Below the pieces are notes generated by a model, which saw only the letters and a program-made list of their open reading frames with translations, was not told the origin of the DNA and did not search any database. A DNA stretch of 64,000 nt, from the IMG/VR virus record IMGVR_UViG_3300005805_000055, positions 29,762 through 93,761 of that record; one strand, written 5' to 3'. The position numbers were made by a program, and so were the translations under genes. The stretch's first letter is position 1. Each line of letters begins with the position of its first letter. This DNA comes from a virus. Positions 1 to 54,572 of the stretch are shown here, one piece after another.

Positions 1-3000
1 TAGTTGTGCAACATCCATATTCCATAGTTTGCGGCAAAGTCTCCATGACGAGTAGCACCCATGCCCATCATTATGTGCCCGACCTCATGCTCCCAACCAC
101 CAGGTGTTGTGGCGGGATCTAGCCATCTGAATACCTCATCTACATGGGGGGAACCGAATGCTTCGACCAGACCCGGAACTATGTTCATAGCTATACCTTT
201 AATAACTGAGCCATTTTCCATATTATCGAATAAAGCATCAAATAATATTTGATCCCTTTCGACCTCTTCGGCAAAGTTGGTTATCTCAATATCCAAAACT
301 TCAACAGCATCACGTTTATCTATAAATTGATTATAAATTCGAACAAAGTCTTCAAGCATTTTGTATGATCTATCTATTGCGTCTTTGGAATTTTTGAGTG
401 TTTCTTTAACAAACTCAGATCCTTCTGCATTACCGAAAGTAAATATTTCGTCAATATCTTGCGATATCATTCTACGAATCGGAGTACTGCTGTCATCTAT
501 TGGCAGACCTTCAATTATTTCTTCTGGATAGTCTTGAAATCTTTCATAATTATATGCGTCAATAAACTTTTTCAGTAAAAGAGTAAATGAACCATCCCCA
601 TATGGATCCAAAAATACCCTGGTCAAATTATTCTCATTGAGGCCAATTCTCTGACCTTCGTATGGCAGGATGCCATCGTCATAGAATTCATCTGTGTCAC
701 CCCAATCAGGTTCTAGGTCCCATGATTGTAGACTTTCTGCATCATTGATAGAGAAGATGAGATCTCCATTTGAGTCAAAAAAAGATATTATAGCTTTTCC
801 GAAATCATTACGTTCAATTACGTATTCCCACCCATCGAGCAGTCTGTCCATTTTTGCCCGCTGTGTTTGGACATACTCATTGAGTTTTATCCGTTGCTCT
901 GGTGATATGTATTCTATTTGTTTTAAGAATTTTATGTCGTCACTACTTATTCCCAGTGGTTCAACCAATTCTTTAATGTAGCCGTAGCTAAGCACCGGGA
1001 TTCCGGGATGATTTATGCTGTCACGTATCTCCATGTCGCGCAAAATCCTTAGCGCAAGAGCTTTTTGCTCTGGCCAGAGTCCGGCAACTGGGTCTGGGGA
1101 GATATTAAGCTTCAGCATTCTTGGCATAGATTTTACATATAAGGCCATATCCCTAATTGGCAACGACTTTACGGGTGGATTGATTGTTGACGATTTTGAA
1201 CCGCCGGTAAAGTCACCTAGATGTACTGTATCAACAACTGATACTGACTCTGGATCAGCCAATACTTCGCTCTCACCACGACGTGTCAAGAATGCATGAA
1301 TTTCATCTTTCTTGACTTTTGCAGTCGTTACATAGGGTGTCGAACCTTCGATTTTGGCAAATCGGTCAGCAAACCATGATGCAATATTTGGATCCGTAGT
1401 CCATGACCATCCGTCATCACGTTCCTCAGTGTGTCCCTGATAGATTGTCACTATGTCTGGTAGCGAATCATATTCAATGCGCTCATCATCTCTCATCATT
1501 GAGAGCCGACCAGGGCGTGGGGATGCCAGGAGTTCATCCCAGTAATCGCGCATTTCAGGAATGTTTTCTGAATCTGTCCAGATGTCAGCCAGGAGTGACC
1601 AGAACTCATCATCTGTCAACTCATCCTGGATTTCCATAAATGCATCAAGTCGGTATGGCCTCTCGTGCAAGAATATAAAGGAATCCCAGTCTTTATTTGA
1701 CCGAGCAGAATTTGCTGCGGCTTGCTTGGCGCGTACTTGTTCGTTGTATCGGCCATTCATTGTCGGTATATAAATACCATGAACGAACTTATGTCTTATG
1801 AAAGAGAAGCCGGTTCCATCGCCACTCACTGCCGAACTTAATTCCGGAATCAGATCTTCGTCAGAGCCGGTAATAAAACTAGAAAAACGCTTTTTGAGAT
1901 CATCTGATAGATCATTCCAATCAAATGGTTCATTTGGTTTATTAGTGGAAGACTTGGATCCAGTCCTTCCTGGTGGTAATCCCCAAATTTCGTCAGGCAG
2001 TTCAGCCCAGAGTGGAACGCGAATGATCGGAAGTCGTTCGCGACGATTTCTATTAACTACATTTCCTGGAATTCTAGCTTCAACATCAACTGGTTCATCT
2101 AGTTGCCACTCTGGGATAATCATCGACTGGAATGAATTGCGGTCATTGAGGGCAAAGTGTGCAGGTCCATCGCCACCAAGAGCTAGGAATGTCGCATAGT
2201 TTGATGCGTAATCGCCATGTCGATCTATGCCGAGCCCAAGGACCATATGGCCCAATTCATGCATAAATCCATCTCCCGACATTTCCTCCATACCGTCACC
2301 GAGGACATATTGAAGTCTGTCAGTATAAAACTTTAGTAGTTCTTCTATCCTCTGAGGCGAGACATTTTGATTCATGGCCCAGATGGCATCTCTCAAATTA
2401 TCATTATTAAATTCAATATTGTCAAAAATACGTAGACCAACCGAACTTCGTAGAGAATCACGAAGCTTCATGGCAGCTGACTTTATTCTAAGACCTGAAG
2501 CAATGGACTCCGAAACTTTCAGGAATTGTTCCTTATACCAGCTGCCAGTTTTGTTATCAGAAAAATTGATAAAGTCATCAAGATCGGGCATAATGCCATC
2601 ATTAATCATGTCCTGAAGCGATTTACCAGAAATATCCTGTTCTAAATATTGATTTACAATTTCTGGATTGATAAAAATACGAAAACATATTGCTTTCCAG
2701 GAGTCCATCATAGAAGAAAGAACATCTACTTTGTCTGATTCATCCACAGATGTTCCGTAGAAATTTCTAGCGAATGACATCAATTGATATGAAGGTTCTG
2801 ATGGTAGGTCATCCACGAATTTGAGGATTGGTTTGCCTTTGCGGTCGACCAACTCAACCCCCGTGGAGAACAGTCGTCCCACTTGTGACGAACCATCGAA
2901 CCTTACATTTATATACGATACTACTGGATTGTCGTCAAAGTTAAGCTGCTTGCCAGTTGTCTGAACTAGTTTTGGCAATTTTACTTTTTTGCCATCACGC

Positions 3001-7784: not shown

Positions 7785-7808
7785 ATTGACCGATATTCGG
7801 ATTGCTGT

Positions 7809-9455
7809 TTACTTTTTCTTTGGTCGTGGATTGAGGAGTCTATTAATGAGTTTTCTTGACCCAGTATCTATTGCTCTCGCAAGGCGATCATCTGTTGTGG
7901 ATGCGGCTTGGCCTTCTCCTGGTTTTCTCGTATTTGCAGAAATTGGTGAACCTTTTTCATATCCACCAACACGGAGAAATGCAGTTGACTCTGATGTTAT
8001 TGACTTTTGCTTTGGTGAAACTGAAGTTTTTGCTCCATCTGACCGCTTCTCATCGTCAAAAAGAAATTTCTTTCCTGATGGATGTAGGTGCTCGATAAAT
8101 TCATATGGATCGCTATCCTTCATTGTCCGCATATTATACAATGCGAGCAACTCATCATAGAATCTATGAACCTCAAGCCGTGCCTTTTCTGGTATTGACT
8201 GCTTGTTTGCATATTCCTCAACCCAAGACTGCATTTCTTCTAATAGATCCTTGGTGGGTCCATCCAGCTTCTCACCCTTGGCTTCAGCCGCCCTTTGTGT
8301 TGCTAGAAATCTTTTTCTAAAAGGCATATTTGCTCCACCTGGAGTTACGCCAGTCAATTGGTAAAACCGCTGATCCTCCAGTGCCCTTGCGCGGCGAGCA
8401 ACGGTTGCACGCTCTTCTGGTGTTAGCTTTGACCAAATTTTTCCATCTTCCGGTGATGCTCTATCTATGCCAGGATTACCGACATAATTTTTTCTTGTAG
8501 TTGACTTTGATCCACTTAGCTGTGCTGGCAGCGACCGCGCGCGACTTGTTCTATCAATATTTGCACTACGCGCACGTGATGGTGAAGTACCGAAGGATAT
8601 TGATCCCGATGAACGCTGCGTCGTCTTGCCAACTTCCTTGGGTTTTGAGTCCCCGGACATTCCACGTCTACCCATAATAAAGGAGCGAGCAGCGCCAACC
8701 CGACCCTGCTGATTTGGCATTTGTGGCCTAGCTGGGCGCTGGAAGGGTGTTCCTTCTTGAATGAGCATGTCACCATCTGCATCGATTGCATTTGGGTCAA
8801 ACCGTTGTGAAATCGACCTACTCATGCGTCTGAATGCACCTTTTTCGCTTACTGCTGGCTGCAGAGGGTATTGCTTGCCGTCATATTTAGAAGTTTTCTG
8901 ATTCAGTACAGAAATTGCATCATTTCTGACCAATCCTGGCTGGTAATTGCCGTACATGTGGTCGCTTTCCTCTTGCATACCCAATGATGGAGGGCCAACG
9001 ATTGTTCCAGTAAGTGGGTTATAACTCAAACCCTTCATACGGAACTGTGCAAGAATTGATGCACTTTCAGCATCTGAAGAAAACGCGCGTGCTTTGTAGT
9101 TAATCACAAGATCTCGCGAATCTGGAGATATTCCAACTAGTTGAGCTGACCTTATTTGTGGAAGAATGGATTTCGTACTTTCAATGTGCGATGCAAGCAA
9201 CCTAACTACAGGTATTGATTTAGTAAGCTCACGAATATCGTCACCATTCAGTACCTCATGGATTTCGACATATGGTGGAAGCGTTGATTCAATATCTAAT
9301 GATTTTGATGAATTTAGCCAGTTTGCCCACTCTATCCCCCTGGAAGAGAATCCATTTGCCACATAGGAGCCATCCCCTGCTTGATATACATTGGCAAATA
9401 TTTCATTGGATTCAGTTAAGAATATGTCGAATTTATGTTTCATTTCATCCACCAA
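7809..9455 (-). CDS. Putative internal head protein, 548 aa
   Basis: Long ORF within the head operon. Carries FDPNAIDADGDMLIQEGTPFQRP (8733-8801) and GSKSTT (8496-8513). Basic C-terminal half. Confidence 0.8.
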   Translation of the reverse strand: MVDEMKHKFDIFLTESNEIFANVYQAGDGSYVANGFSSRGIEWANWLNSSKSLDIESTLPPYVEIHEVLNGDDIRELTKSIPVVRLLASHIESTKSILPQIRSAQLVGISPDSRDLVINYKARAFSSDAESASILAQFRMKGLSYNPLTGTIVGPPSLGMQEESDHMYGNYQPGLVRNDAISVLNQKTSKYDGKQYPLQPAVSEKGAFRRMSRSISQRFDPNAIDADGDMLIQEGTPFQRPARPQMPNQQGRVGAARSFIMGRRGMSGDSKPKEVGKTTQRSSGSISFGTSPSRARSANIDRTSRARSLPAQLSGSKSTTRKNYVGNPGIDRASPEDGKIWSKLTPEERATVARRARALEDQRFYQLTGVTPGGANMPFRKRFLATQRAAEAKGEKLDGPTKDLLEEMQSWVEEYANKQSIPEKARLEVHRFYDELLALYNMRTMKDSDPYEFIEHLHPSGKKFLFDDEKRSDGAKTSVSPKQKSITSESTAFLRVGGYEKGSPISANTRKPGEGQAASTTDDRLARAIDTGSRKLINRLLNPRPKKK

Positions 9456-11457: not shown

Positions 11458-12110
11458 TCGTCACACCCACAATCTTTATCGAGTGGTACAACTGACTTCA
11501 TTGAATTACCAAAATGATCATCACCAACCATTTCCCAGTTATTATTATCCCTCAAAAATGTGACAAATTTTGGTTCCATTTCGCAGAAGTCTCGAAGAAC
11601 AACAATTGCATGCTTTAGGTCATCAGTAGTTACTACGTAGTTCTCTGAATCGCTATACTGTTCCGCGCCTTTAGTATACCAAGTTTCATCAAAAAAGATA
11701 TCCTCATTAATAGACTTCTTTTTGCCAAATCGTTGACTCATCCTACGATTCCAGTCTTTATCTGACCATATTGAGCCATTGAAGATTTTCTTTATTTTTC
11801 TGCGGCAATTCTTCATCGTTGGATGATGGCATCCTTCATTTGGCCAAAGGCCAGTTGTTTCATGATGGAGCCATGCGCAAATATTGTTGAGTGGGTATAG
11901 CTCGGGGTGATCTGCCAGAATTACACGACAACGTCGAAAACCGCCTGGTTTACGCATGATTGGGCGCCAATAGCGTAGCAAGCGCTCAAGATTCCCGCGA
12001 CGCGGACCGTATCCCCGGAGAATATCTCCAGTAATTGCCTCCTGGGGTAGGTCTAGAATTGCATCCTGTGGCGCCTTTATGCTCATGTCATCCATTGGTA
12101 TTGTCTCCAT
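11454..12110 (-). CDS. Cys/His-rich head-associated protein, 218 aa
   Basis: GNLERLLRYW...PGGFRRC...CAWLHHETTGLWP, a motif I associate with head-morphogenesis proteins of actinobacterial phages. 4-bp overlap with the next gene. Confidence 0.7.
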   Translation of the reverse strand: METIPMDDMSIKAPQDAILDLPQEAITGDILRGYGPRRGNLERLLRYWRPIMRKPGGFRRCRVILADHPELYPLNNICAWLHHETTGLWPNEGCHHPTMKNCRRKIKKIFNGSIWSDKDWNRRMSQRFGKKKSINEDIFFDETWYTKGAEQYSDSENYVVTTDDLKHAIVVLRDFCEMEPKFVTFLRDNNNWEMVGDDHFGNSMKSVVPLDKDCGCDE

Positions 12111-12609
12111 TTTCTGCCCAGACGCTACGCCAGTCTACACTATTTTTATTATGTAAGTTGTTTCCAGAAGTACGCACTGGTTTATAGATTTTACGATTTG
12201 CCGAAATACCACTCATGTATTCCATTTGACTAGAAGCATTTAACGACTTAAATTCCATTGCCCGATTATCAAAATAATGTTTTGACTTAATCTTGGGACT
12301 AATCGTTGTTTCTATTTTAACATCCTTGAGGAGTTCTGAGTTAACTGGTTGGGTTTTGTAGATAAATGTGCGCATCCAGCGCTCCAAATCCTCGCCAGTT
12401 TTTCGTCCCCAGAGGAATTTATGAAAATCAGTATGCTTGTATTCACTCAGGAATGGTTCAGTCAGTATGTATGCGCCAAAATCTATTAGTTCAACATCTC
12501 CATCGGGAGAAATAATAGCGCCATCTTTATCGGAATTAGCAACATCGTCAAGTAAATAATATACCTTATTATCCCCATTTGTTGCTACAAGTATTCCACG
12601 TGGATTCAT
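12088..12609 (-). CDS. Hypothetical protein, 173 aa
   Basis: Overlaps both neighbours (ATGA overlap at 12606-12609). Confidence 0.75.
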   Translation of the reverse strand: MNPRGILVATNGDNKVYYLLDDVANSDKDGAIISPDGDVELIDFGAYILTEPFLSEYKHTDFHKFLWGRKTGEDLERWMRTFIYKTQPVNSELLKDVKIETTISPKIKSKHYFDNRAMEFKSLNASSQMEYMSGISANRKIYKPVRTSGNNLHNKNSVDWRSVWAENGDNTNG

Positions 12610-21701: not shown

Positions 21702-21733
21702 CGCAGGCTCCAATCCCTGTTGCTTTTCTTTTT

Positions 21734-23563
21734 TCAGCTATCCAGATCAACTTCTGAAGACATGAGTTCGAATTCGACTAGCGTCTTGAGGAAATCATCA
21801 GTTCCAGACTCATCACCCTCGGTAACAAGATTCTTTTTTCCGGCAAGCCATTCTGCTGGGATCATTGATTCCATACCCATATCTTTTGCGCGCTTCATGA
21901 TGTGGCGCTTAGCAGCATCAACATCCTTAGCGCGCCCATGAGCCATTATTGCATTCTTTAGATCTTCTTCAGAAGCAATTGGAAATGAGCCATCCGACAT
22001 TGCTGTTCCCTCTTCGGCCATTCTCGTTCTTGTTTCATCGGAGAATGCGCGCTTCAGTGCAATTTCGGCAGCCTCTGCCTCAATGTCATCAGTCTCATCA
22101 TTGGTTAGGTATTCGTCATAGCCAAGAACATGACCATCTAGAGAGACGAATGCATCGTAGGCCTTGCCATCAAATCCATCAATCTCTACCTGGTAGGCAT
22201 CATGACCCTCGAAGATTGAAGGCTCAACGGCAACGACTGTTCCTGGAAGTGACTTTACGGCAATTTCTGCAGCCTCATTGAAGTCAATGAGTTCAATTTC
22301 ATCCAGAATTGACTTTTGCTCGAATGCGCTGTCATCGAGTCTATGGAAACCAAGAACTTCAGCAGTTGTTCCATCGATATAGACCTCATTGACATGACCA
22401 GACTTTACCTGAACATCAACAACGAACATGTCTGCAACGGCAGAATACCCAGAGTCAATGACGTCGGCGCCCTTGAACATCGATTCCGCAAGTCCTTCAA
22501 CATGCAGCAGGCCAGGCATTCCTTTTTCCGAAACGCACCCACCTGGACAATCGTCACAAATCTGCTGTCCACCTGGGTAAACCTTGCGGTCAATTGCGCA
22601 CATGTAGCCATTTACTCCAATATCGGCAGACTTTGTGCCCAGCTTTCTAAGGCGAGCCATGCGCATTGCTTCCAGGTCTGGACTCATCATGTCCTCGTCC
22701 TCGCCAGCACCCATATACATGCCACCCTTGGTGGGTTGCATTGGTGTTCCGATATCGAGAACTTCTTCGTCCTCGTCCTCTTCATCCATGGGGTCCATGC
22801 CATCATCCATCATGGACCCATCTTCTTCGTCCATCATTTCTGGCTTGCGCATTCCCATTCCCTTGACAGGGCGCTTTTTCATCATTCCATACATCTTTTC
22901 GGATGCCATGTCTTCTGACTCTTCGTCATCTTCCATCTCGGTCATCTCGTCATCTTCGGATTCAGATGGGTCTTGTTCCATGGAAGCATCGTCTTCCATT
23001 GACATCTCATCATCCTCCTCGTCCTCTTCGTATTCTTCTTCCATGCCGGGCATCATTGGCTTCATGTTTTTGCGCTTACGCCAACCCATGCCATAACCCT
23101 TTTCTGAGTCCATGCCATCTTCGCTGTCGTCAAGTTCGGGGATGCCTTCCATTTCGGCTGCAGCATCGTCCCTATTGAAGCCATTGGCCATGTCCATTGC
23201 CTTACGACGACGCATCATCATTTTGAGCTCGTCTTCGGTCGGAAGTTCTTCTTCTGCCATGTCGTCCATTGCGGCAACATCAACGGGCACCATCTTTACT
23301 TCAACAGCCATGGCACCACACTTTCCGCAGACAGTAGCTCCGGACTTGTAGCCGCATTCTCCGCCGCCAAGGCCCTTGGCGCACTTGACGACTCCACCGT
23401 CGCCATCGATTTTTACTACGGCCTTTTCGTCATAGTTCATGTCCATTGACTCCTTATAGTGCATTGACTTGAGTAGGCATCCGTTGTGATATGTACACCC
23501 ACTGCAAGGCATCATAGCCTTTCGCTGTTCAACCTGGCAGAAGTATTTTTCCTCGATTTTCAT
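21734..23563 (-). CDS. Scaffold-like head protein, 609 aa: Cys clusters, Met/Asp/Glu-rich tract, two PepSY-like repeats, C-terminal DGSFPI...GRA module
   Basis: IDFNEAAEIAVKSLPGTVVAVE...YQVEI...DGHVL fits the PepSY pattern. Very acidic, Met-rich middle region. C-terminal MSDGSFPIASEEDLKNAIMAHGRA...IPAEW. Confidence 0.75.
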   Translation of the reverse strand: MKIEEKYFCQVEQRKAMMPCSGCTYHNGCLLKSMHYKESMDMNYDEKAVVKIDGDGGVVKCAKGLGGGECGYKSGATVCGKCGAMAVEVKMVPVDVAAMDDMAEEELPTEDELKMMMRRRKAMDMANGFNRDDAAAEMEGIPELDDSEDGMDSEKGYGMGWRKRKNMKPMMPGMEEEYEEDEEDDEMSMEDDASMEQDPSESEDDEMTEMEDDEESEDMASEKMYGMMKKRPVKGMGMRKPEMMDEEDGSMMDDGMDPMDEEDEDEEVLDIGTPMQPTKGGMYMGAGEDEDMMSPDLEAMRMARLRKLGTKSADIGVNGYMCAIDRKVYPGGQQICDDCPGGCVSEKGMPGLLHVEGLAESMFKGADVIDSGYSAVADMFVVDVQVKSGHVNEVYIDGTTAEVLGFHRLDDSAFEQKSILDEIELIDFNEAAEIAVKSLPGTVVAVEPSIFEGHDAYQVEIDGFDGKAYDAFVSLDGHVLGYDEYLTNDETDDIEAEAAEIALKRAFSDETRTRMAEEGTAMSDGSFPIASEEDLKNAIMAHGRAKDVDAAKRHIMKRAKDMGMESMIPAEWLAGKKNLVTEGDESGTDDFLKTLVEFELMSSEVDLDS

Positions 23564-23650
23564 CTATCGCACCTTATAGTATACCCAGAATACTACAACT
23601 ACATGGAATGATTAAATCAATTCGTAACAAATTATGATAATCCATACTGA

Positions 23651-26600
23651 TTATTCTTCTTCTTCTTCCGTATTATCTTGTCCCGTAACTATGTCAACAA
23701 TTTTCTGTATTATCTCAAGGTCTTCTTCAAATAATGCAGCTATATCGCTAGCGGAGTACCCACTTTCGATTAATGACTTAAATATGCGCCCACTCGAACT
23801 ATCTGTCCATATGGGAATTTTTCCCAATAGGAATATTGACTTTCCATAGGTGCTACGTTCTTTTATCAATCTCGCAACACCAGACTCGGATAAGCCAGTT
23901 ATTCGTGCAATTTCTTCAATTGTCATGTCAGAATGAAGAAACGTTGCAAGTAAATTACGCGCATTGTTCTCCATTAGTGTCATGAGTTGTGTTTGTGCTT
24001 GCATATCAGGACTGCTGACATATTCACGATTACCTGGTGGCATGAATCCATCTCGTAGGGTGTCAATTAGTTGAGATCTATCTAGGCCAAGTAGGCTTTC
24101 CATAAAGTCGAGTGGCGATTCATTGGATGATCCACCACCCATCTCTACAAAGTCCCTAAAAAATGCAAGTATTGATTCAGCTCTAGAAAAATCCTTTTGT
24201 CCCTCCGCTGGGACCAATTCATCATCAGCAAATAGTCCAGCAACAACATTTCTGGCATCTACTAGTTCTTCCTCATTTAGACGAGAAAGTGTTACGAGTG
24301 TTTTGCGCACGGCAGTCATGTAAGCATTTCGCAGTTCTGGAGTTGGTACAAAATCCGAAGATTCATCATCTATTGGAGTCGTTAAAGATGGATGCCCAGA
24401 CCAAATTAACTTTGTATAAGCTTGTGTTAATCCATGAAGATATCGTTCTATGAACATCCGCTCGTATCTTGGATTATTGGATACATTTTTACCAGCAATA
24501 TACTCATCATATGAAACAAAATTAATATTTTCTGGGTCTAATGACCTTGTTCTGGATTCAGGATCATCTCCTGAATTTTCTTCATTAGCAGCTTCTTCAA
24601 TCAATTTATCAAAATACTCCCAATCACCTCTCTTCACTGCTTGACTATCCATATAGTCTAAATCTTCATCTGTAAGACGTTTCGGCCATAGGTATTCATG
24701 TGTTGACCCAAGAAGATCTGGAATAATGGCGCCATCGGTAATCAACCTAAGAATTTGATCAATCGCAGAATCATCAATTACGCCATCGGTGCTCAATCTA
24801 AAATTATCAAAGATATCCTCAAGTCTGGCTCCTGACCTAAACATGGCTTGAGCATCTTGTCGAACTTGATCCAAGATATCGTTTACTAGCCCGTTACGAA
24901 TACCCAACTCTTCGAGAAAGTCAAATAATGAGCCACCGCGCGATGGATCGTATCCACCGACCAAGGCAAATTGTCGAATTAGTTTTGCAATATCACTTGC
25001 TGCATTATCTTCATCATTCATTGATTGAAGATATTGGTCGATAAATTGGAGCCCAGCTCTTCTTTTAAAGCTTTGTGTCAATTCAGCAACATCAGCATCA
25101 AGTACAAATTGTATTCTCGCTATTTCTTTTCTTAATTCCTTATCAAAATAATCATTTACCTCACTAATATAATTGTCTAAATCGGATTTTGCTTCATCAA
25201 TAATTTCTTTGCGATTAATGGAGTCTTCGGACCGCAATTCATTTTCAAGATCTTTAAAATCCTGCTTGGCCTTATCTATTCTGCGTTTTCTTTCTGCATA
25301 ATTGTCGAACATCCTACTTCGTATTAAATCCTCTGAATCTTGACGGATTTTTGCAATCCTCTCAGAAAGTATTTCTAGTATTTGATCGTATTCTTCGATA
25401 AAACGCACATCAATATCGTCATGTCCATTAATACGGGCGAGATCACCTACCGGAAGAGCAGATGACCAGTTGGATCTAATTATATCGATGTCTTCATTTG
25501 TCAATCCATATTTTTTCTTAAGAGATTCCTCTGAGCCAATTCCATTCACTATTTCCTCAAAATCACTACCAGTTAGGCCAAATTCGAGCTTGTAGAACTC
25601 CATTTTGCGCCGTCCATCAGATGTGGTGCTCTTGGAACCAGTAATTTGTGGTGACTGACCACGCAACGCACGTCGTTCTGCTTCTATTTGACGCAATTCC
25701 CTAATCCCACTTGTGGAAATGACAACACGACCAGTGCGACGAGACTGTGGAGCATTGGAGCCGGACGGGACCGTCCCACCAGTATTGATGACGGTATTAT
25801 TATCCCCAGTAACATTAATATTTGTTGTTCCAGTATTATTTACAACAACACTTCCCGGCTTTGTTTGTTGTCTTGGTTTTCTTTCTGCTTTTGCACGTTG
25901 AGCGTCCTTGTTTCCATGCTTTCTCTTAAGTAGGAGTGCCTTACGCCTATTCAGCTCGCGGCGTCGTTCGTTGTATTCCTCACGTGAAATTGTCTTTGCA
26001 TTTGCTCGACGTCTAAGATCTTCAAGTTCATCCCTTATGTTTAATAGTTCAGCGTTTACCTCATCATCTGACATTTCGTCAATATCAGAATTGTCTATAA
26101 GATCAGATAACTTATCTTCATTTACTTCAACATCATCTGATTCAATAATTTCTTGTACAACGTCTACTGGTGTAATATTCCTCTCACCATCTGGATCAAC
26201 GCGGTCTTCTGGTTTGGCCGTCTGATCAACAGTAGAGGTCCAACGACCACTTCTGCGGCGACCGAGTTGCTCGTTTGTAGCTTCACCATTAGCCACGACA
26301 TACCATCTTGGAGCATTTGACGTAGGGTCCTCGTTGCCATAGACAAAGTAGCCACGTGACTCAAGCTCGTTTATGATGTCGTCAATTTTATACTTCTGCT
26401 CATTAACGCCCATTCGAGAAGAACCGATTTGACCAGAACCCATACGTGGTCTCCGCTGATCACGCTCTTCCTGTATTTTTTCCAGCGCCATAATTAGAGC
26501 ATTACGTTCTGAATCGGTACGTAGTGCTGCAAGAATCTGCTTTAGTTCACTATCGGTAAGCGAAGAAAGATCCGGGCGCTGCCTACTGGTGTTCATCCAA

Positions 26601-29600
26601 TTTGGGCGCGTACGGGTATATCTGATTTTTTTATTTCCTCTTCCACCCATTGGAATATCAATGAATTTTTCACCCCTTGATCCAGGTATAAACATGTCAA
26701 TATCAAGTCGTGGCTCATCTCTTGGTGGCATTATGTGGATTCCGTCAACGACGGTAGTCTTCATATCGTCCGGCAATCCCTTGAAGTCGTCATATACGGG
26801 TATATTTACACCGAAAAGAACAGCTTGTGGGCCATCAGACTCACGACGCCTAATCTTACCAATTATTGAAGGTGGCGGTGATTTCGGGAAAGACAAAATG
26901 TCTGGCCAGGGTCCGACATAATGATAAACGGGCTGACCCCAGTCGTCGGTAAAGCGCCAATTTCTCGGATCTTTTACCACCTTATCGGCATAAGCATCAG
27001 TGCCATACTCGTATTCTGGACGCGTCCATTCGAACATTGGCGAAGCGGTTGTTGACTTTGAACCAGCGATTCCATCACCTTCGTCGTCAATTATTTCGTC
27101 ATCATCCTCTTCTGATTCTACTGCGTCAAGAGAATTCCTAATAACATCTTCCCATTGTTTTGCCATAGCTATACTGCGGCGCGCCTCGCTGCTTGGTCCA
27201 CCAGACCCACGGTCTGGATCCATTGCATCAAAAATTGAAGATTGGTATTCATTAAGCAGATTAGCAATATCATCTAGTACGACTTCTGGGATAAGGATAC
27301 CCTCTTCACTAATAAGTGCATCAAGTAGCGAAAGTGCGGATTCCCACACGGAAGTATGTTTTTGCTCATCTCCTTCATTTGATCCATCCAGTGCGCCAAG
27401 TCGCGTCTGTGCAGCTCGACGCAATTTCTTAATTAGTTCTGGTACTGAGTATGAGGTCTTTGTTTTGCGCTTATCTTCCTTTTCCTTGAGACTATCGGAT
27501 ATAACCCTAAGTCTTTCGGCCTCCTCTTTGCGGGCGATCCACTCATCTTTAGTAAAGCCAAGGAATCTTTCAGCACGTTCCCGTTCCTCGTCATTGTCAC
27601 CTAGAAGCATTTCCATATATTTGTCGATTACGGCCTTGCGTCGTTGTTCACGCATTTTGGCAAATCCCTCATACCAAGCTTCCTCATCAAACTCTTCACC
27701 ACGCCTTACAGCATCGGCCATTGCGTCGCGTAAAGCCTGCTCCTCCTGCATCGCTTCAAGTGCTTGATGTTGAATATCGAGTTCTCTTATGCGAGACTCG
27801 AACTCAGCTTGGTTAATTCCATTTTTATTCTTTGGTGTTGCTATTCCAACTTCAAAGAGTGCATCAATTTGTTCCTCTGGAGAGAGTCCATCAAGTCTGT
27901 CTCCGAAAATTTCCCTTATCGATTTGCCCTCTGGCATCTTTGTCTTTTTCTTTTGACCAGATACCGCTTGGTCGCCATCTATTTTTGCAAGGTCATCTGG
28001 AGTTGGTTCATCTGATGAACTAGGCACCGGCAATGTTGTTGACTTGGATGAGTTTATTGGTCCGGAGTTGTAACGACCATTTCTACGTCTTTGTGAATTA
28101 TCGTGATATTCAGCCAGACGCCGCCACTCTGATACAGTCAGGAACCCGCCATTATTATCAAAACGCTGTACCAAATTTTGTACAACACGGAATGAGCGTT
28201 GATTCCTCGCCCATCCAATTATGTTCTCTGGGCTAAATCCAGATGGAGCACCCATATTGTATGGTCGGCCACGGAATCCGCCACCAGAATCAATTCTTGG
28301 TGAATCATATTTCCCGCTAAAGGCGGCAAGATTAAGTATCGACTCACCAATACTATGCCTAAATTTCGAATTTGTTTCTTTATTTAACGCTTTTGCAAAT
28401 AGACGATCATAGGCAATAATGTACTTCTCGTGATCGGCACGATTTAGCGTTACTGGAGAACCAGCATCTTGTGCCTCTTTTATTTTTGCTGCGAAATCAG
28501 CAAGTAGGGAAATCTTGCTATCATCGGCATTTTCTCTAAGTATTTCTTTTATTTCTTGTCTAATCTCGCCTAGCTCATCTGGATTAAGCCGGAGGATTGT
28601 TTTATCTTTCAGTGGCATCCTATTTCTCGTAGATGCACGACCAGCGAGCCCACTAGATCTAAAGTCATCAATTGCATTAATTAATTGAAGTAGGTGGTCT
28701 GCGGCGGAATGCTCTCCACTAATTTGACTCAAATTTGCTGCAGTTGCCCACATGCGCAGAGAAACATTGTCAAGGTAGCCAGCGTCCATATTGGCGAGTT
28801 GTGTCCCACCATTTTCAAGATCACGCGCAATTGATCTAATCTCATCAATCATATGACCAGTGAATTCGGAGTATGAACTGAGGCGTTCTATATCAGAATT
28901 AAGGAGTTGCCTCAACGAAGGTGGCTCCCCTTCGGTTTCACCATTCGGCTTAATAATATACGAATATTCACCATTTCTAATTAGTGAGTTTATATCCCTA
29001 CCAATACCGAATGATCTCTCAAGTTTGTCGGCCACACCCATTGGTATTCCGCCGTATATATATTCACCATCACTTCCCGAAAACCTAACGACTAATTCTT
29101 GTCTGCCGCCATCGTAGTAGACGGAATCAACAGCTTGGCTTTCATTTTGCCCACCAGGTGTTGGGTGAAGTAGACGTGAGTCACCAAGGCCTCGCCCATT
29201 AACATACGAGGCATTGTTTGTCCGCGACTTGCTTCCACCAAGCGGATTCCCAAGTAATAATGGCCTATATCCAGATACGGATTCACCGGTATCTACATCT
29301 TCAAGGATGCTTTTTCTTGTCTTTGAGCGTTGTGCACGAATTGCATATTTTTGTGCATCGAGTGCTGTTCTTGCAGCACGCATGATTTCTTCAGTTGGAG
29401 AATCAATAAGACGAAGTACATCTTCTTCTGTTAATTGATCTTCTCTATCTAGTTTGCTATCAAACAAATCTGGCCAATTCAACTCACGCAAAATAGAAAG
29501 TGCTTGAGCAAGGCGACCAGTAATATGGGCTGAAGTTATTTCACCGTATAGATTTTCTGCATTATCTGAAAGCGCATCTATCATTCTTGCTACTTCGTCC

Positions 29601-32600
29601 TGGCTAAATGTCGAAGAACCGTCACGAACCTCATCTGCCAATAACTTTCTCGCTACTGCAACGGCAGCTTTCCTGGTGCGCCACTGACGGTGCCTAGATG
29701 CAAGATCAAATATCGCATCGGCTACAGATGCAGTCACTAGGTCATGTATTTTCATAGCCCGCTCAAGATCCGACACAACACCATCGTCGGGATTATCTTT
29801 CGCAAGTTCGTCTTCTAGCTGCTTCAATAATGAGCGACTTCTTTCATTTACTATTGAAAGTTGTTCAATAAAATTATCAAATCGTGCAGCAGAAGTTTCA
29901 GAATCATCAGCAAGAACAATATTTTCAGCAATTGCATATGAATCATAATAAATACGCTGACCAGTATGTGACTTTGAGCCACTTGCTCCAAGCAATTTAC
30001 TGAATACTCTGTCACCAACCAAAAGATCTTTTGTTGTCTTGTCTACGAGATAAGACTCATCAAGACCTTCCGGAAGCCTAGTTCTTCTTGCTATTGAATT
30101 CATTACCCATGCATGGTATGGGTATGGAGAAACCTCTGAAAGTGCATAGGATACGGCAGCTTCCCGTGTAGGGAAGTCGACCTTGATTTCTGACAAATCG
30201 GCAGAACGTCCATCAATTGCTTCTCCCATAAGGCGGTATGAAGTAGTTCCATCTGGATTTGGAACCTCATATATATCAATTTGTACAAGCGTCATAGCTG
30301 AATCTGACCCAAATGCAGGCATTCTATTTTCATCGAGGTCAATAGAAATTTGCCAAGTTAGACGATCTTTTAATCGCGGATCTAGTGGTGGAACTCTAAT
30401 CCATCCATCAACTGGGCCAGATGCGTTTGTTGGTGGCATTGCTGTGTAAGGAATAAGATCATAAAGATAATCTGGCCGTGCACTCAGGATTCCTCTAGTT
30501 TTTTCAAATCTTTCCTGAACAATTTTTGAACCAATATATGTAGGAATATAATTACTATCATCCCTGCCTGGGGATAATGACACGCCAACAGCTTTCAAAC
30601 TCACAATATGCCCAGCTTCATCAACGAGCCAGAGGGCATGGTGACCACTAGTACTATCCATTCTAAATCCAAGAACATGTGGCCCATATTGTTTCTGTAC
30701 TTTGCGAATTCCTGAGTCATACCTGCTTGGAAGGCCCTGGAGATTAGGAGAGATTCCCCTGGTGCCTATAGTATTACTTGACAATGACCTGAGAACAGTT
30801 TCTTCGAATGTCTTCCTTGTTGCAAATTCCGGATACCTGCCATCAGGTCCAGACTCAACCAAGTATGACTGACCGGTATTTGGTGCAAAAAATAGAATTC
30901 CCATTTTCCCAAGATTGTAGGCCTCTATTGTTTTTCTATTATTGGAAAGAAGCGCAGCTAGCATAAATCTCCACTTGTCTCGCGACATCGGAATTCCCTT
31001 ATGGAGATTATTATCTTCTGAAACAATGTCAGTAATACCGTCGATTGTTAATGGCATGATTCTGGATGTCAGAATTATCCTCTGAGCAATGCGTGGATCA
31101 TATGCTTCAGATTCTTGCGTATCCTCCATGAGTGGCTGCGTAAAGTCACTCCTCCAGAATCCACCGTCACTAGAACTACCATCCACCAAGACCCCGCTTG
31201 GTGGAATTGGGCGTAAATCATTACGCGTGGTTGACTTTGATCCAACTACTGCTGCAGGGTAAGAAACTGGATATGGGTTGCGGCCAGTTATTTTTCCGCG
31301 ACGACGCAATATGTCATTGAGTCGCCTATATCCGTCGCCAGTGTATGTTCCTTCAATCAGATCGTTAATAACATTTATGTCAAGATTTTCGACAATTCCA
31401 GTGTGGGCGATGTCTCGACGTAGTTCACGAATCAGCTTCACCGCATCACTAGCTTGAAACTTGAGATCCCGTTGTGCCTTATTGGCAATAAATTGCATTG
31501 AATCCTCAACAGAATCAATTGTATGCCTATTTGTTGCGCGACTCAACTTCTGCGTTTCTTCGCTCCTGAAATCTCCACGATTAAATAAGTTTGGATTGAA
31601 CGGGGATACCCTACGCGGTAAACCATCATCGAATAGGGAGAATTCAGTTGCCTCCAATGATGCATTTCTGCGATAAGTGACATCAGGGCTGTTCCAGTTT
31701 TTTAATTTACCATTTTGCGTAAATTTTGCAACTGAATCAACCTGAGTGCCAGGACGTTTATCACGCGTTGCACGTAGTGGCAATCCACGCGTTACATTTG
31801 GAATAAGTGAACCTTTGTCAAATATAATGTCGATGTCTTCCTGCTCACCGCGCATATCTCCAAGAACAACAGAAACTGTTCCATCTATATTTGGAATTAC
31901 GGAGCGAACGCTCCATCGCGGTTCGCCGAGTGGGAAATTAGGAGCATCCCAATTATCTGGGAAAACATCACCGACAGAGACTCTAGATATATCTACATGT
32001 GTAGCTTCTTTTCTTTGTTGTGAATTTACCGAGCGCCTTGATGCGCTTGATCCCCACCTACGAGTAGTAGAACGTGATCCTGGTGTATAGAATTCCAGGG
32101 CAACACCATCATCTGGAGCACTTCTGGTAGTTGATTTTGAAGCTCCAGACTGAGATGCCATCCACTCATCTTTGTTTTTATTAAATTCTTCAATGTCTCT
32201 TTCAAACTTGATTCGCTTAGCTTCTTCTTTTTGGCGTCTCTTTTCTGGGTCAAGCGCATCTGTCGGCCATCCCTTTTCAATAGCACCCTCGACTATTCGT
32301 GTTAATACTTCACCAGTTGCAGCGGCATCATAGTCCGCAGTATGGTGCTTATCGCCAAGAGATACTCCAAGATATTTTGTTATGTCAGCAAGACTATTAG
32401 ATGGGCGCTTTTCCCCTGTTGCCTTATCTATCTTAAATGGGGCATCTTCATTTTCTGGTGACCACTTAGGCAGCGTGGCATCTGCAATTTCCTTAGTATC
32501 GATGATTCCATCTGGTTCCCAATCTATTCCAGATTCTCGTAGTGCATCAGTAAGTACTTCATTATCGAATACGGCATTCTGCATTCCAAGAATGACACCC

Positions 32601-34732
32601 TCGCCAGCCCATTCAATAAACCTCCGGTGAGCTTCTGCTACCGATGGTTGACCATCCAGAAATTCTTGCGTTATTAGATTTCCATCCTCGTCCTTCAGGT
32701 TGTCACGCGACCATTGCTCCCACTCTGAATGTGGAATTCCTGGGTTAATGTATACGTTGAATCGTTCAATAACTCTTCCATTACGCATCCTGACTGCGCC
32801 GATTTGTGTTGGGAGACCATTGCTTGATGGCTCATTAAATTCATCGAATACAAGACCAGTGGTTTCGTAGTCAATAAAGACAATTTCTTCATCGCCCATT
32901 CTTTCCCAGAACTCATCCCAGGTTTTTACGCCTTTGATTAACTCTGCGGCACGACCAGAAAATGCTGGTGCTGGTGGCTTTCGTGGATATTGTGGCTTTG
33001 TTGTACTCTTTGATCCAGCGATGCCAAAATTATCGTAATCCCAGCTATTCGATGAATCCTGTGGCGTAGGCGTTTCTGAGACTTTTTCGGAGCCATCAGC
33101 GAGTCGCCCTTCTCGTATGCGCCATCTCCTATCAGGGGATGTGTCTGGAGTTTCGGGAATATCAGGTATACCGATATCACCATCGCCCTCGTCGTCTGTG
33201 CCATCCCCAATCGGGGGATAGTAGTCATCAAAAAGTGCTTTCAGTGTGGGTGAGTTTGCAATCAACCAGTCAATTGCTTTTTGGGCTGCCGCAGCTGCTT
33301 GCGAGACCTGGGATGGGTCATCCTTTAAGGCTTTCAGCCAGCTTGCTATATAGGCAACGTGTTGATCGTCTGGACGTTCTTCTAGACCAAGAACAGCCAT
33401 CAACATTGATGAGCCGATTTCGGCAATTAGTTCTTCATACGCGTATTCCGGCGACCCGAATCTATTCATTTTGGGGCGATCAAGGCGACCAGGATTTCCC
33501 GTCCAGTGAACTATCTCATGCATTAGGGTTGCATAAAATGCTTCTGGCGAATCAAATGATGCGAATGGTGGCATTTGAATGCGATCATCCGTTGGGCTGT
33601 TGTATGCACGATCTCCGCCCTCAGCCCAGGAAACACCAAGTTCTTCAACTATTTTCTGTATTGTCTCAATGCGTAATTCTTCCGAGAGAACCTTTGGCTC
33701 CGGGAACCTTGATGGATCGATACCGTCTATTTGGTCAATATTGAATACAGTAAAGAACGAAGACATCCACCTTTGCCGCTCTTCTGTTTCTCCATCAGGA
33801 CCAGCAACTTCAAAGGTGCTTCGCTTCCAGAAGGCCAACATGGTGCCCTTTTCGCCTTTGCGAACTTGTCCACCAAGCTCCTGTGCCTGCTTGTAGGTCA
33901 GCCACTCTGGCCTGCTGTAGCCCTTCAATTCGGCAATGATTGCAAGAATTGCCTGATTGCTCCCCTTGTATGGTTTTCCAGTTTTGCCATTTCTGTATAA
34001 ACCAAAATCTTTCCAAGGTCTCTTCCACTTTCCGCCTTCTGAATTTTCCAGTGCAGCGATCAGTGCCTCTGATAAGAGTTTTGTCAGTTCATCGAGTTTT
34101 TCATCTTTTGATTTTTTGGGGTATGTTTTTCCACCACGACCACGTGTTGATGATTTCGATCCCACTGGTGGGTATATGTCAAGGTAGTCATCTACAATCT
34201 TTGCTAATTTTGGATTATCAATTGCAGCCTGAGAAATGGTTGTTGATTTTGACCCAGAGTCCCATTCGCGAGCATCAGGGCCAGGCTTTCTTTTCTTGGG
34301 AACCGTTTGTGCGCGAAGTTTTTGCTCCTGCTGAATTCTTAATTCTTCATCTGTGAGTTTGCGCTGCTTTGGCTTTTTCTTGTCACCACCGCCAGTACGT
34401 GATGCACTTCCAACAGATGGAACGGTTTCACCGTTACGCCTACGTTCTTCATTTGCTATTGCAGCATCAATGGCACCCTGCTGACGCTCTCGCCCACGAG
34501 TAGCAGGAATAACGGCACGTGGGATTATTGGGCGGGCAAATGGCGTTGCTTCAAACACTATTCCATCGGCATCACCATCAATGGCTCCGGTAATATCAAC
34601 AAAGACCATTCCGGGTGGTGGTTTTCGCAATCCTCCACCTATCTGGGGACCCAGTTTTCCACCTATTGCCTTTTCATCGAATACAAGCTGTGGCTCTACA
34701 CCAAACTCAATATCCATGCTTTCATGATCCAT
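23651..34732 (-). CDS. Giant polyvalent protein, 3693 aa: ArdC (ssDNA-binding + zincin MPTase), DEDDh 3'-5' exonuclease, KTSC, C-terminal HTH
   Basis: ArdC: WKRPW...YKGSN...WLTYKQAQELGGQVRKGEKG and LMHEIVHWTG...YAYEELIAEIGS (~33260-34030). Exonuclease: IDYETTGL/QNAVFD/HHTADYDA (~32290-32890). KTSC: VDSVYYDGGRQELVVRF...YIYGGIP (~28960-29140). HTH: MTIEEIARITGLSESGVARLI. Eleven GSKSTT-type linkers. Confidence 0.92.
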   Translation of the reverse strand: MDHESMDIEFGVEPQLVFDEKAIGGKLGPQIGGGLRKPPPGMVFVDITGAIDGDADGIVFEATPFARPIIPRAVIPATRGRERQQGAIDAAIANEERRRNGETVPSVGSASRTGGGDKKKPKQRKLTDEELRIQQEQKLRAQTVPKKRKPGPDAREWDSGSKSTTISQAAIDNPKLAKIVDDYLDIYPPVGSKSSTRGRGGKTYPKKSKDEKLDELTKLLSEALIAALENSEGGKWKRPWKDFGLYRNGKTGKPYKGSNQAILAIIAELKGYSRPEWLTYKQAQELGGQVRKGEKGTMLAFWKRSTFEVAGPDGETEERQRWMSSFFTVFNIDQIDGIDPSRFPEPKVLSEELRIETIQKIVEELGVSWAEGGDRAYNSPTDDRIQMPPFASFDSPEAFYATLMHEIVHWTGNPGRLDRPKMNRFGSPEYAYEELIAEIGSSMLMAVLGLEERPDDQHVAYIASWLKALKDDPSQVSQAAAAAQKAIDWLIANSPTLKALFDDYYPPIGDGTDDEGDGDIGIPDIPETPDTSPDRRWRIREGRLADGSEKVSETPTPQDSSNSWDYDNFGIAGSKSTTKPQYPRKPPAPAFSGRAAELIKGVKTWDEFWERMGDEEIVFIDYETTGLVFDEFNEPSSNGLPTQIGAVRMRNGRVIERFNVYINPGIPHSEWEQWSRDNLKDEDGNLITQEFLDGQPSVAEAHRRFIEWAGEGVILGMQNAVFDNEVLTDALRESGIDWEPDGIIDTKEIADATLPKWSPENEDAPFKIDKATGEKRPSNSLADITKYLGVSLGDKHHTADYDAAATGEVLTRIVEGAIEKGWPTDALDPEKRRQKEEAKRIKFERDIEEFNKNKDEWMASQSGASKSTTRSAPDDGVALEFYTPGSRSTTRRWGSSASRRSVNSQQRKEATHVDISRVSVGDVFPDNWDAPNFPLGEPRWSVRSVIPNIDGTVSVVLGDMRGEQEDIDIIFDKGSLIPNVTRGLPLRATRDKRPGTQVDSVAKFTQNGKLKNWNSPDVTYRRNASLEATEFSLFDDGLPRRVSPFNPNLFNRGDFRSEETQKLSRATNRHTIDSVEDSMQFIANKAQRDLKFQASDAVKLIRELRRDIAHTGIVENLDINVINDLIEGTYTGDGYRRLNDILRRRGKITGRNPYPVSYPAAVVGSKSTTRNDLRPIPPSGVLVDGSSSDGGFWRSDFTQPLMEDTQESEAYDPRIAQRIILTSRIMPLTIDGITDIVSEDNNLHKGIPMSRDKWRFMLAALLSNNRKTIEAYNLGKMGILFFAPNTGQSYLVESGPDGRYPEFATRKTFEETVLRSLSSNTIGTRGISPNLQGLPSRYDSGIRKVQKQYGPHVLGFRMDSTSGHHALWLVDEAGHIVSLKAVGVSLSPGRDDSNYIPTYIGSKIVQERFEKTRGILSARPDYLYDLIPYTAMPPTNASGPVDGWIRVPPLDPRLKDRLTWQISIDLDENRMPAFGSDSAMTLVQIDIYEVPNPDGTTSYRLMGEAIDGRSADLSEIKVDFPTREAAVSYALSEVSPYPYHAWVMNSIARRTRLPEGLDESYLVDKTTKDLLVGDRVFSKLLGASGSKSHTGQRIYYDSYAIAENIVLADDSETSAARFDNFIEQLSIVNERSRSLLKQLEDELAKDNPDDGVVSDLERAMKIHDLVTASVADAIFDLASRHRQWRTRKAAVAVARKLLADEVRDGSSTFSQDEVARMIDALSDNAENLYGEITSAHITGRLAQALSILRELNWPDLFDSKLDREDQLTEEDVLRLIDSPTEEIMRAARTALDAQKYAIRAQRSKTRKSILEDVDTGESVSGYRPLLLGNPLGGSKSRTNNASYVNGRGLGDSRLLHPTPGGQNESQAVDSVYYDGGRQELVVRFSGSDGEYIYGGIPMGVADKLERSFGIGRDINSLIRNGEYSYIIKPNGETEGEPPSLRQLLNSDIERLSSYSEFTGHMIDEIRSIARDLENGGTQLANMDAGYLDNVSLRMWATAANLSQISGEHSAADHLLQLINAIDDFRSSGLAGRASTRNRMPLKDKTILRLNPDELGEIRQEIKEILRENADDSKISLLADFAAKIKEAQDAGSPVTLNRADHEKYIIAYDRLFAKALNKETNSKFRHSIGESILNLAAFSGKYDSPRIDSGGGFRGRPYNMGAPSGFSPENIIGWARNQRSFRVVQNLVQRFDNNGGFLTVSEWRRLAEYHDNSQRRRNGRYNSGPINSSKSTTLPVPSSSDEPTPDDLAKIDGDQAVSGQKKKTKMPEGKSIREIFGDRLDGLSPEEQIDALFEVGIATPKNKNGINQAEFESRIRELDIQHQALEAMQEEQALRDAMADAVRRGEEFDEEAWYEGFAKMREQRRKAVIDKYMEMLLGDNDEERERAERFLGFTKDEWIARKEEAERLRVISDSLKEKEDKRKTKTSYSVPELIKKLRRAAQTRLGALDGSNEGDEQKHTSVWESALSLLDALISEEGILIPEVVLDDIANLLNEYQSSIFDAMDPDRGSGGPSSEARRSIAMAKQWEDVIRNSLDAVESEEDDDEIIDDEGDGIAGSKSTTASPMFEWTRPEYEYGTDAYADKVVKDPRNWRFTDDWGQPVYHYVGPWPDILSFPKSPPPSIIGKIRRRESDGPQAVLFGVNIPVYDDFKGLPDDMKTTVVDGIHIMPPRDEPRLDIDMFIPGSRGEKFIDIPMGGRGNKKIRYTRTRPNWMNTSRQRPDLSSLTDSELKQILAALRTDSERNALIMALEKIQEERDQRRPRMGSGQIGSSRMGVNEQKYKIDDIINELESRGYFVYGNEDPTSNAPRWYVVANGEATNEQLGRRRSGRWTSTVDQTAKPEDRVDPDGERNITPVDVVQEIIESDDVEVNEDKLSDLIDNSDIDEMSDDEVNAELLNIRDELEDLRRRANAKTISREEYNERRRELNRRKALLLKRKHGNKDAQRAKAERKPRQQTKPGSVVVNNTGTTNINVTGDNNTVINTGGTVPSGSNAPQSRRTGRVVISTSGIRELRQIEAERRALRGQSPQITGSKSTTSDGRRKMEFYKLEFGLTGSDFEEIVNGIGSEESLKKKYGLTNEDIDIIRSNWSSALPVGDLARINGHDDIDVRFIEEYDQILEILSERIAKIRQDSEDLIRSRMFDNYAERKRRIDKAKQDFKDLENELRSEDSINRKEIIDEAKSDLDNYISEVNDYFDKELRKEIARIQFVLDADVAELTQSFKRRAGLQFIDQYLQSMNDEDNAASDIAKLIRQFALVGGYDPSRGGSLFDFLEELGIRNGLVNDILDQVRQDAQAMFRSGARLEDIFDNFRLSTDGVIDDSAIDQILRLITDGAIIPDLLGSTHEYLWPKRLTDEDLDYMDSQAVKRGDWEYFDKLIEEAANEENSGDDPESRTRSLDPENINFVSYDEYIAGKNVSNNPRYERMFIERYLHGLTQAYTKLIWSGHPSLTTPIDDESSDFVPTPELRNAYMTAVRKTLVTLSRLNEEELVDARNVVAGLFADDELVPAEGQKDFSRAESILAFFRDFVEMGGGSSNESPLDFMESLLGLDRSQLIDTLRDGFMPPGNREYVSSPDMQAQTQLMTLMENNARNLLATFLHSDMTIEEIARITGLSESGVARLIKERSTYGKSIFLLGKIPIWTDSSSGRIFKSLIESGYSASDIAALFEEDLEIIQKIVDIVTGQDNTEEEEE

Positions 34733-54039: not shown

Positions 54040-54051
54040 TAGGAGAGTAAT

Positions 54052-54522: not shown

Positions 54523-54563
54523 TTAAAAACCTTTTAAAGTTGCATTCGGCACTATCTTGCCTG

Positions 54564-54572
54564 TGCTAGGTT
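54564..54572 (+). promoter_or_regulatory. Extended -10 promoter, probable leaderless transcript
   Basis: TGcTAGGTT ends 7 nt before ATG 54580; no Shine-Dalgarno. Confidence 0.5.

Follow-up and report, generated by a model that had tools for sequence, protein, structure and literature searches.

The phage described here is represented by a linear virus contig of 93,761 bases (IMG/VR record IMGVR_UViG_3300005805_000055, CheckV completeness ~63%). Bases 29762-93761 of it form the 64,000-nucleotide stretch that we analysed, called the window, and site coordinates below are window positions. Several giant proteins encoded around the head genes of this phage are punctuated by one short peptide, GSKS[TS]T. 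The peptide is far more frequent than composition would give, is selected as protein sequence, and lies in linkers between protein modules. At orthologous junctions of related phages it is replaced by other motifs, each private to its lineage, and in most of these relatives the prohead protease is fused in frame to the first giant. We propose that GSKS[TS]T marks the processing sites of a system of cargo polyproteins, in which the giant chains would be loaded into the prohead and cut into many separate proteins. That the chains are packaged and cleaved, at which bond and by which enzyme, we infer from these observations.

A motif repeated in giant proteins

The 68 open reading frames (ORFs) of the contig contain 22 copies of GSKS[TS]T. 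In 300 shuffles within proteins the mean was 0.01 copies and no shuffle gave more than 1, an excess of ~2000-fold over composition. The relaxed form [GSA]S[KR]SxT occurs 32 times against 0.33 expected, and with one-residue variants the whole contig holds 34 sites. A position matrix derived from these 34 gives them 16.9-28.3 bits, whereas the best other match in the proteome reaches 7.8 bits; the gap between 16.9 and 7.8 bits means that the motif is all-or-none, with no intermediate sites. All 22 exact copies have distinct 18-nucleotide sequences, with a mean identity of 12.6 of 18 bases, and together they use both serine codon families, all four glycine codons and both lysine codons. Selection therefore acts on the peptide, as codon differences between copies had already led the original prediction to conclude. 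That prediction, made by reading the sequence alone, had listed 19 sites, all of which are present at the positions given below, in frame on the minus strand, within the four ORFs that it named; the two looser sites that it mentioned, GSASRT and GSLSRT, are also real. Its statement that the motif occurs in four proteins was too narrow. Those four carry it, but seven do in all, namely giants H, F and A, B548, a 1163-aa (amino acid) protein (g1163), a 3077-aa giant (g3077) and the tape measure protein, and no others in the contig. The proposed confinement to head-operon proteins fails with the last of these, which bears a motif in all seven genomes compared below. Both motif and matrix scans agree with its reported absence from terminase, portal, protease, sheath and tube, and find it absent from the capsid protein too. 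A full-text literature search of partial coverage retrieved no published description of a GSKSTT-type motif system.

Giant H, a polyvalent cargo protein of 3693 aa (23651..34732, minus strand), contains 11 motif sites and one loose site. Their low coordinates are 34394 (GSASRT, loose), 34238, 34145, 32999, 32126 (ASKSTT), 32063 (GSRSTT), 31226, 29963 (GSKSHT), 29219 (GSKSRT), 28034 (SSKSTT), 27047 and 25622, all on the minus strand, and they leave segments of 21-659 aa. H qualifies as polyvalent by its several unrelated Pfam domains, which include ArdC-N (E 9e-26) with MPTase-PolyVal (E 8e-41), RNase_T (E 6e-13) and KTSC. The segment between residues 191 and 573, which had been predicted to hold ArdC alone, holds the ArdC-N and MPTase pair at residues 218-481, and the predicted exonuclease segment (573-864) holds RNase_T at residues 618-809. 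The labels "ART-like" and "DUF3626-like" given to two further segments could not be upheld, as Pfam was empty for both up to E=1.

Giant F (3035 aa, 12606..21713, minus strand) starts with 1575 motif-free residues, followed by three sites (16974, 15495 and 14781) and a loose one (GSLSRT, 13179). Giant A (3..7784, minus strand) runs beyond the start of the window and measures 2853 aa in full; it has Pfam pentapeptide repeats, three HExxH modules and sites at 5964, 3306, 1944 and 1185 in the window, with a fifth at residue 2670 outside it. The 548-aa B548 (7809..9455, minus strand) has a single site at 8496-8513, where the aligned position in relatives reads GMRSR, GLRSR or SSRSVK. On the plus strand, near the contig start, upstream of the window and outside the head operon, g3077 (L001 6001-15234) carries eight sites. 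This protein also contains three diverged repeats, each starting with GS[KR]SRTDRY and holding an HDxxxH motif. The tape measure protein (1536 aa, 55308..59918, plus strand), whose gene follows the sheath and tube genes, has two sites in its Gly-rich centre, GSKSTT at 57153-57170 and GSKSAT at 57321-57338. The segments of F and A that were tested matched no family in Pfam and PHROG searches, and a Foldseek search with the giant-F model gave no match at E ≤0.001.

The sites behave as boundaries. In an AlphaFold2 (AF2) model of F residues 1560-2320, for which 24 homologous fragments were used, each of the three sites modelled is in coil between folded helical modules, with a predicted local distance difference test score (pLDDT) below 50; one of them stands six residues ahead of a helical module of pLDDT 83-94. 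The disordered inter-domain location expected by the original prediction was thus found at each modelled site. The flanks of sites exceed random positions in hydrophilicity (p 0.0003-0.008). Sites are not crossed by any Pfam domain, and blocks of homology to relatives set in or break off at them. Where this phage has site F2068 or A2195, the homologous module of seven relatives runs into a stop codon (for A2195, it terminates at the gene end in L178 and L186), which fits a site being a protein end. Six times, two sites stand 21-56 residues from each other, a spacing to be expected if short spacer peptides were removed.

A second element, the DGDxDG...RP tag, is common to H, A, g1163, g3077, p820 and a 117-aa ORF. 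In H it occupies ~residues 27-107 (34412..34654, minus strand), ahead of the first site, and is the stretch of this protein most widely conserved among relatives. No other part of the giants is as well conserved in relatives. Its position in H, A, g1163 and g3077 is always ahead of the first GSKSTT site, on the N-terminal side, and the protease-fused forms of relatives have it too, following the protease part. The tag may be a capsid-targeting or anchoring element. Its core of ~40 aa reads hydrophobic-D-[IV]-[TS]-G-A-[IL]-DGDxDG-[IT]-[VI]-x-[ED]-x-T-x-[FWY]-x-RP; besides the copy in H (34412-34654), it is found at 6975-7166 (A), L002 12880-12996 (g1163) and L001 6150-6330 (g3077), and the 820-aa and 117-aa tag-bearing ORFs are both in L002.

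Private motifs at shared junctions of related phages

Relatives are abundant in IMG/VR, a public database of viral contigs, with 308 found for the protease and 395 for the capsid protein. Six related contigs (G001-G006) were analysed whole, making seven genomes with this phage. The original prediction had suggested looking in related phages for equivalent, genome-specific motifs, and all six relatives have their own at the same junctions: GMRS[RKQ] in G001 (32 copies), SSRSx[RK] in G002 (18), GFAS[RST] in G003 (7), GLAS[TSRA] in G004 (22), GMAS[RSQ] in G005 (12) and STRS in G006 (37). Shuffle means for these six motifs are 0.06-0.67; over all seven genomes they are 0.01-0.67, against 7-37 copies observed. 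The genome-by-motif matrix is almost diagonal, with near-zero use of one genome's motif in another. Further motifs (GARS, SLRSSG, LSSG, GVRS and SISGRM) appear at other IMG/VR loci.

Where junctions can be aligned, in giants H, F, A, B, g1163 and g3077, they carry the relative's own motif. The F1575 junction, for example, reads GSKSTTRGVS here and SSRSQRGVS in a relative; the H864 junction aligns to GMRSRT, and g3077-149 to STRSRT or GLASRT in relatives. Modules have been shuffled between lineages. The code can differ between very close phages, as the capsid proteins of this phage and G006 are 87% identical, yet the codes are GSKSTT and STRS. The Gly-rich centre of the tape measure protein carries its own lineage's motif in all seven genomes, as a near match in G005. 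The motifs share the form [G/S]-[S/T/hydrophobic]-[K/R/A/S]-Ser, in which the Ser at position 4 is nearly invariant across lineages. An attempt to read the lineage code from the single conserved junction A602 failed, since in many lineages the module there sits behind a tag and not behind a site.

Two other features of these genomes were noted. The large terminase ORF of G002 (G002:C1:37651-40122, L111/L112) has 823 aa against 438 aa here, with homology in two blocks, and the interruption may be an insertion such as an intein. Large proteins of G001, G002 and G004 contain collagen-like Gly-x-y repeats (TGATGPTG and others, with up to 94 copies of one 5-mer). These proteins are presumably tail fibres, and such repeats are absent from this contig.

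A proposed processing signal and its candidate readers

We think that the giants are chains of independently folding modules on disordered linkers, with one copy of the motif per linker and sometimes two. The chains would enter the prohead through covalent fusion to the protease-scaffold protein in most relatives; in this phage, adjacency to the protease gene suggests the same entry, perhaps aided by the N-terminal DGDxDG...RP tag. A phage-encoded endopeptidase would then cut the motif, giving dozens of 200-900-aa proteins that leave with the DNA. Because of the shared form of the motifs, the likely scissile bond would be [K/R/A/S]-Ser, that is GSK/STT in this phage. That the motifs are proteolytic processing sites we consider probable. 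The fuller explanation, a processing signal of capsid-loaded cargo with the S78 prohead protease as leading cutter, is our best one and a tentative one, to which we give a little less than an even chance. Enrichment, linker location and genome-specific motifs came out as the original prediction of a processing code had foreseen; cleavage itself we still infer, and there is evidence against S78.

The S78 (HK97-type) prohead serine protease (468 aa, 34756..36162, minus strand) consists of a protease domain at residues 10-172 and a variable, scaffold-like C-terminal part. It matches Pfam PF04586 (Peptidase_S78) with 49 bits against a cut-off of 21, and the PHROG head maturation protease with E 3e-30; His63 and Ser127 are invariant in 23 relatives, and no solved relative was detectable by sequence. 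In G001-G005 this protease and the first cargo giant form one in-frame fusion; this phage and G006 encode the protease in a gene of its own. The fusion also occurs in many of 80 IMG/VR loci, with the first motif 490-650 residues in, and cargo is therefore tied to the protease-scaffold protein. HK97 gp4 cuts between K103 and S104, and the herpesvirus assemblin, which shares the S78 protease fold, cuts an Ala-Ser bond in its protease-scaffold polyprotein. A [K/R/A]-Ser bond thus fits this class of proteases, and we rate S78 as a real possibility for the cutting enzyme, somewhat more doubtful than otherwise. Its loops vary with the motif, DPR..KMK going with Lys/Arg at motif position 3 and DRR..KML with Ala there. 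As regards its C-terminus, the separate protease gene of this phage ends in ...VKSKSLK, which includes the SKS core of the motif (34756-34800, minus strand), and the closest relatives, L003 and L004, end in ...RTKSFR; at this point, where fused and split forms of the gene part ways, the SKS may be what is left of a site.

Several observations weigh against cutting by S78 in the capsid. The loop correlation amounts to a single phylogenetic split and is therefore weak evidence. Between lineages, identity is 78-96% in the S78 catalytic domain (26-76% in the rest of the protein), while the motifs of those lineages have hardly more in common than one Ser. S78 would be expected to act on the capsid protein and the scaffold part, yet the matrix finds no motif or near-motif (≤7.8 bits) in the portal, in the capsid protein or anywhere in the protease-scaffold protein. 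The tape measure protein is assembled in the tail, away from a protease confined to the prohead, and nevertheless carries the lineage motif; its sites in all seven genomes mean that in-capsid cutting by S78 cannot be the whole story. Other disordered stretches of the F model lack the motif, a further point against our explanation. As to the capsid protein itself, it is homologous to HK97 gp5 (phmmer E 1.5e-54 to 1OHG over residues 157-433), and our best guess for its maturation site is the K98-S99 bond, ahead of the conserved SIGDEF. The variable linker before SIGDEF reads FK-S in Lys/Arg lineages, SA-S in the GMAS lineage and LSS in LSSG lineages. We give little weight to these tripeptides as a copy of the cargo code, as the matching was post hoc and motif calls are noisy at many loci; moreover, HK97 numbering would put the capsid cut ~40 residues further on.

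The tape measure sites would be easier to understand if cutting took place after ejection, as head cargo and tape measure protein would first meet one enzyme in the host. A cargo-borne zinc metallopeptidase, acting there or in the filled capsid, could be that enzyme, an alternative that we find rather unlikely. The strongest candidate would be a conserved HExxH module of giant F (residues 712-956, 18846..19580, minus strand, HEFGH at residue 749); the MPTase of H and the repeated zincin-like modules are others. All six genomes have an HExxH in their giant-F homologue. By BLAST the module aligns from its HExxH in G001 and G003-G005, although marginally in G003-G005 (E 2.5e-4 to 5e-3), and the G002 homologue has HEIGH at residue 727. 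It is 24-41% identical, divergent enough to co-evolve with a changing code, unlike S78, and no giant has a longer motif-free stretch than the one around it (1575 aa). The module has no Pfam match up to E=1, and its other leads are weak feature-based ones to ATLF and M90 zincins (scores 0.79-0.80). Zincins prefer a hydrophobic residue at P1', which suits motif position 2 in most lineages, but this position is Ser here and in G002 and Thr in G006, and the invariant Ser at position 4 would be left unexplained. Zincin-mediated processing of polyvalent proteins was proposed by Iyer et al. (PMC5512222), yet the PF18818 MPTase is absent from 3/5 relatives, and the many HExxH modules across the giants fit effectors more than a dedicated processing enzyme. 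A broader proposal, which we would also regard as doubtful, is that this phage family runs orthogonal protease/site pairs: the specificity of a dedicated endopeptidase for 4-6 residues would have been rewritten repeatedly, with the ~30 sites per genome following (GSKSTT, STRS, SSRSxR, GMRSR, GFAS, GLAST, LSSG and others), and head cargo and tape measure sites would be cut together on delivery into the host, not in the prohead. Self-cleavage by an N-O acyl shift at the Ser was rejected, as it needs a strained folded domain and the sites are in disordered linkers.

It is also conceivable that the motif is not cut, being instead a recognition site for modification (Ser phosphorylation by C670, or glycosylation) or a docking peptide in packaging or ejection; we judge this quite unlikely. 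The Ser/Thr modification alternative raised by the original prediction has gained a possible enzyme in C670 (9445..11457, minus strand), a motif-free core protein of the cargo region that all relatives retain, with 36-61% identity in 25 relatives. Its AF2 model (mean pLDDT 72) predicts a protein-kinase-like fold for residues 420-670, with a Foldseek match to CtkA (E 2.5e-5) and VIA-align Z scores of 14.7 for CotH, 14.1 for CtkA and 13 for HipA, the nearest structures. CotH phosphorylates Ser in the Ser/Lys/Arg-rich repeats of spore-coat proteins, a single Ser is the sole invariant motif position across lineages, and disordered linkers are typical kinase targets. However, the residues expected at a canonical kinase active site are not consistently conserved in C670: within the catalytic-loop region D532 and R540 alone are invariant, the one invariant Asp being D532, there is no invariant N-lobe (beta-3) Lys, and this phage does not have the DFG-like Asp present in most relatives. 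The basic context is lacking in lineages with Ala at position 3 (GFAS, GLAST), and a modification site need not occur once per module junction or match gene ends in relatives. The middle domain of C670 (residues 200-390) is highly conserved, with pLDDT ~90. If a host protease cut the ejected proteins, the code would follow the host lineage. Head cargo and tape measure protein both enter the host, as is established for myophages, and the motif varies between phages that may infect different freshwater Actinobacteria; but GSKSTT and STRS part two phages with capsid proteins 87% identical, and to our knowledge the housekeeping proteases of related hosts do not differ as sharply as these codes, so that we hold this explanation to be very improbable. 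Least credible of all, in our view, is that nothing reads the motif and that it serves as a passive linker or as a joint at which shuffled modules recombine. Shuffling of modules between lineages, with homology blocks that stop at sites, speaks for this; but 22 different 18-mers sharing on average 12.6 of 18 bases leave no conservation at the DNA level, and nothing would keep a passive linker to the same exact hexapeptide throughout one genome and to a different one in the next.

Gene order, known systems and significance

The cargo genes lie among virion genes, flanked by those for portal and protease on one side and by the capsid gene on the other. The minus-strand order is portal, S78 protease, giant H, G609, giant F, two small conserved genes, C670, B548 and giant A; upstream of the window the same head region goes on with g1163, a few small genes and the HK97-type major capsid protein. 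This scheme of portal, protease, cargo and capsid gene places ~43 kb of genes between the protease and the capsid gene, and the giant multi-module proteins of the contig total ~45 kb. Neither of two conserved head-module proteins carries the motif. The portal protein (692 aa, 36269..38347, minus strand), the first gene of the module, matches PHROG portal families (E 8e-64) and is 60-70% identical in five relatives. G609 (21734..23563, minus strand), whose C-terminal 300 aa are 59-71% identical in relatives, matched no family, with only a weak PepSY match below the cut-off. Pfam and PHROG gave no assignment for B548, C670, G609 and E173; for D218 the sole match was a PHROG without annotation. 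Positions 52315-59918 on the plus strand hold the tail genes, for sheath, tube and tape measure protein.

A WhiB-family gene upstream of the window (G000:C1:1912-2112, minus strand, E 1.6e-14), the presence of contig DNA in lake and freshwater metagenomes, and nearest cultured portal relatives in Brevibacterium phage Cantare and Gordonia phages (~41% identity) together suggest a freshwater actinophage. Those cultured phages have no giant cargo genes. For the present phage, which is uncultured, the sequencing runs found were of DNA only; isolates of freshwater Nanopelagicales are available (PMC10202952). Two PAPS-reductase-like genes (47530-48684, plus strand, and L002 8146-9042, minus strand; PHROGs 2302 and 424) were observed, one of which sits within the head/cargo region and is not shared by the five compared relatives. 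An Erf-like single-strand annealing protein (40559-41320, plus strand) adjoins the terminase and is kept in 5/5 compared relatives. The window contains no tRNA genes.

As we read it, the system works like the internal-protein systems of T4 and phiKZ and is built from polyvalent proteins. In T4, gp21 cleaves the internal proteins and Alt at L/I-x-E, removing an N-terminal targeting peptide. The likeness is that these non-structural proteins (IPI-III and Alt) are packed with gp21 in the prohead core and ejected with the DNA (PMC9958956). T4, however, uses a loose signal shared with the capsid protein, small proteins, one N-terminal cut and a protease of MEROPS family S77, whereas this phage has 3000-aa chains, up to 12 internal sites, an exact hexapeptide absent from the capsid protein, and an S78 protease. 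In the phiKZ-like SPN3US, mass spectrometry showed that the prohead protease processes head-internal ejection proteins at one motif (PMC10052503). Such phages (SPN3US gp245, phiKZ gp175; AXE) resemble ours in having many ejection proteins and multiple cuts per propeptide, but a single motif serves capsid, portal and cargo, the cuts remove N-terminal propeptides and do not separate modules, and neither tape measure sites nor lineage-private codes are reported. By the matrix scan, the sharing of one motif between cargo and capsid, scaffold or portal that characterises T4 and phiKZ does not occur here.

The HK97 gp4/gp5 delta-domain system offers the same protease family, a close gp5 homologue and a K-S bond matching GSK/STT, but HK97 has no cargo, and the capsid protein here has no cargo motif. 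In herpesviruses, assemblin (S21) is an N-terminal protease fused to its scaffold and releases itself at Ala-Ser; our relatives resemble it in their protease-scaffold-cargo fusions and G-x-A-S-type motifs, although the herpesvirus polyprotein has two sites and no effector cargo. Potyvirus NIa and picornavirus 3C each read a virus-specific code of 6-7 residues, and these codes diverge between related viruses. The likeness to such RNA-virus proteases is functional only, one code separating all modules; the proteases are unrelated, the genomes are RNA and processing is cytoplasmic. Polyvalent proteins are likewise giant multi-effector proteins with ArdC-N, MPTase and nuclease modules, and were noted to adjoin virion genes, with delivery and processing as their predicted fate (Iyer et al. 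2017, PMC5512222). That work proposed autoprocessing by the MPTase and defined no cleavage signal, whereas here there is an explicit, genome-wide and lineage-specific signal, and the MPTase is dispensable in 3/5 relatives. What sets the system apart from T4, phiKZ and the polyvalent proteins is an exact code of 4-6 residues that is rewritten between close relatives, absent from the capsid protein and present in the tape measure protein, with up to 12 sites per protein and ~45 kb of cargo.

Roughly half of the known coding capacity of this phage is cargo, probably injected with the DNA, with modules that include ArdC-type anti-restriction, nuclease, zincin and pentapeptide-repeat ones. An explicit code would let their mature products be predicted from sequence across at least 300-400 related IMG/VR contigs, and would put to the test the long-standing, unproven idea that functional units are cut out of polyvalent proteins. 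The sites in the tape measure protein suggest that head cargo is connected with the ejection proteins of the tail, something not foreseen by current models of assembly. If protease specificity co-evolves with the code, these phages would offer natural, mutually orthogonal protease-site pairs as tools, and a clear example of many sites being rewritten in concert with their reader. Orthogonal pairs, if they are real, would be the bacteriophage counterpart of RNA-virus polyprotein processing and a natural protease-site library.

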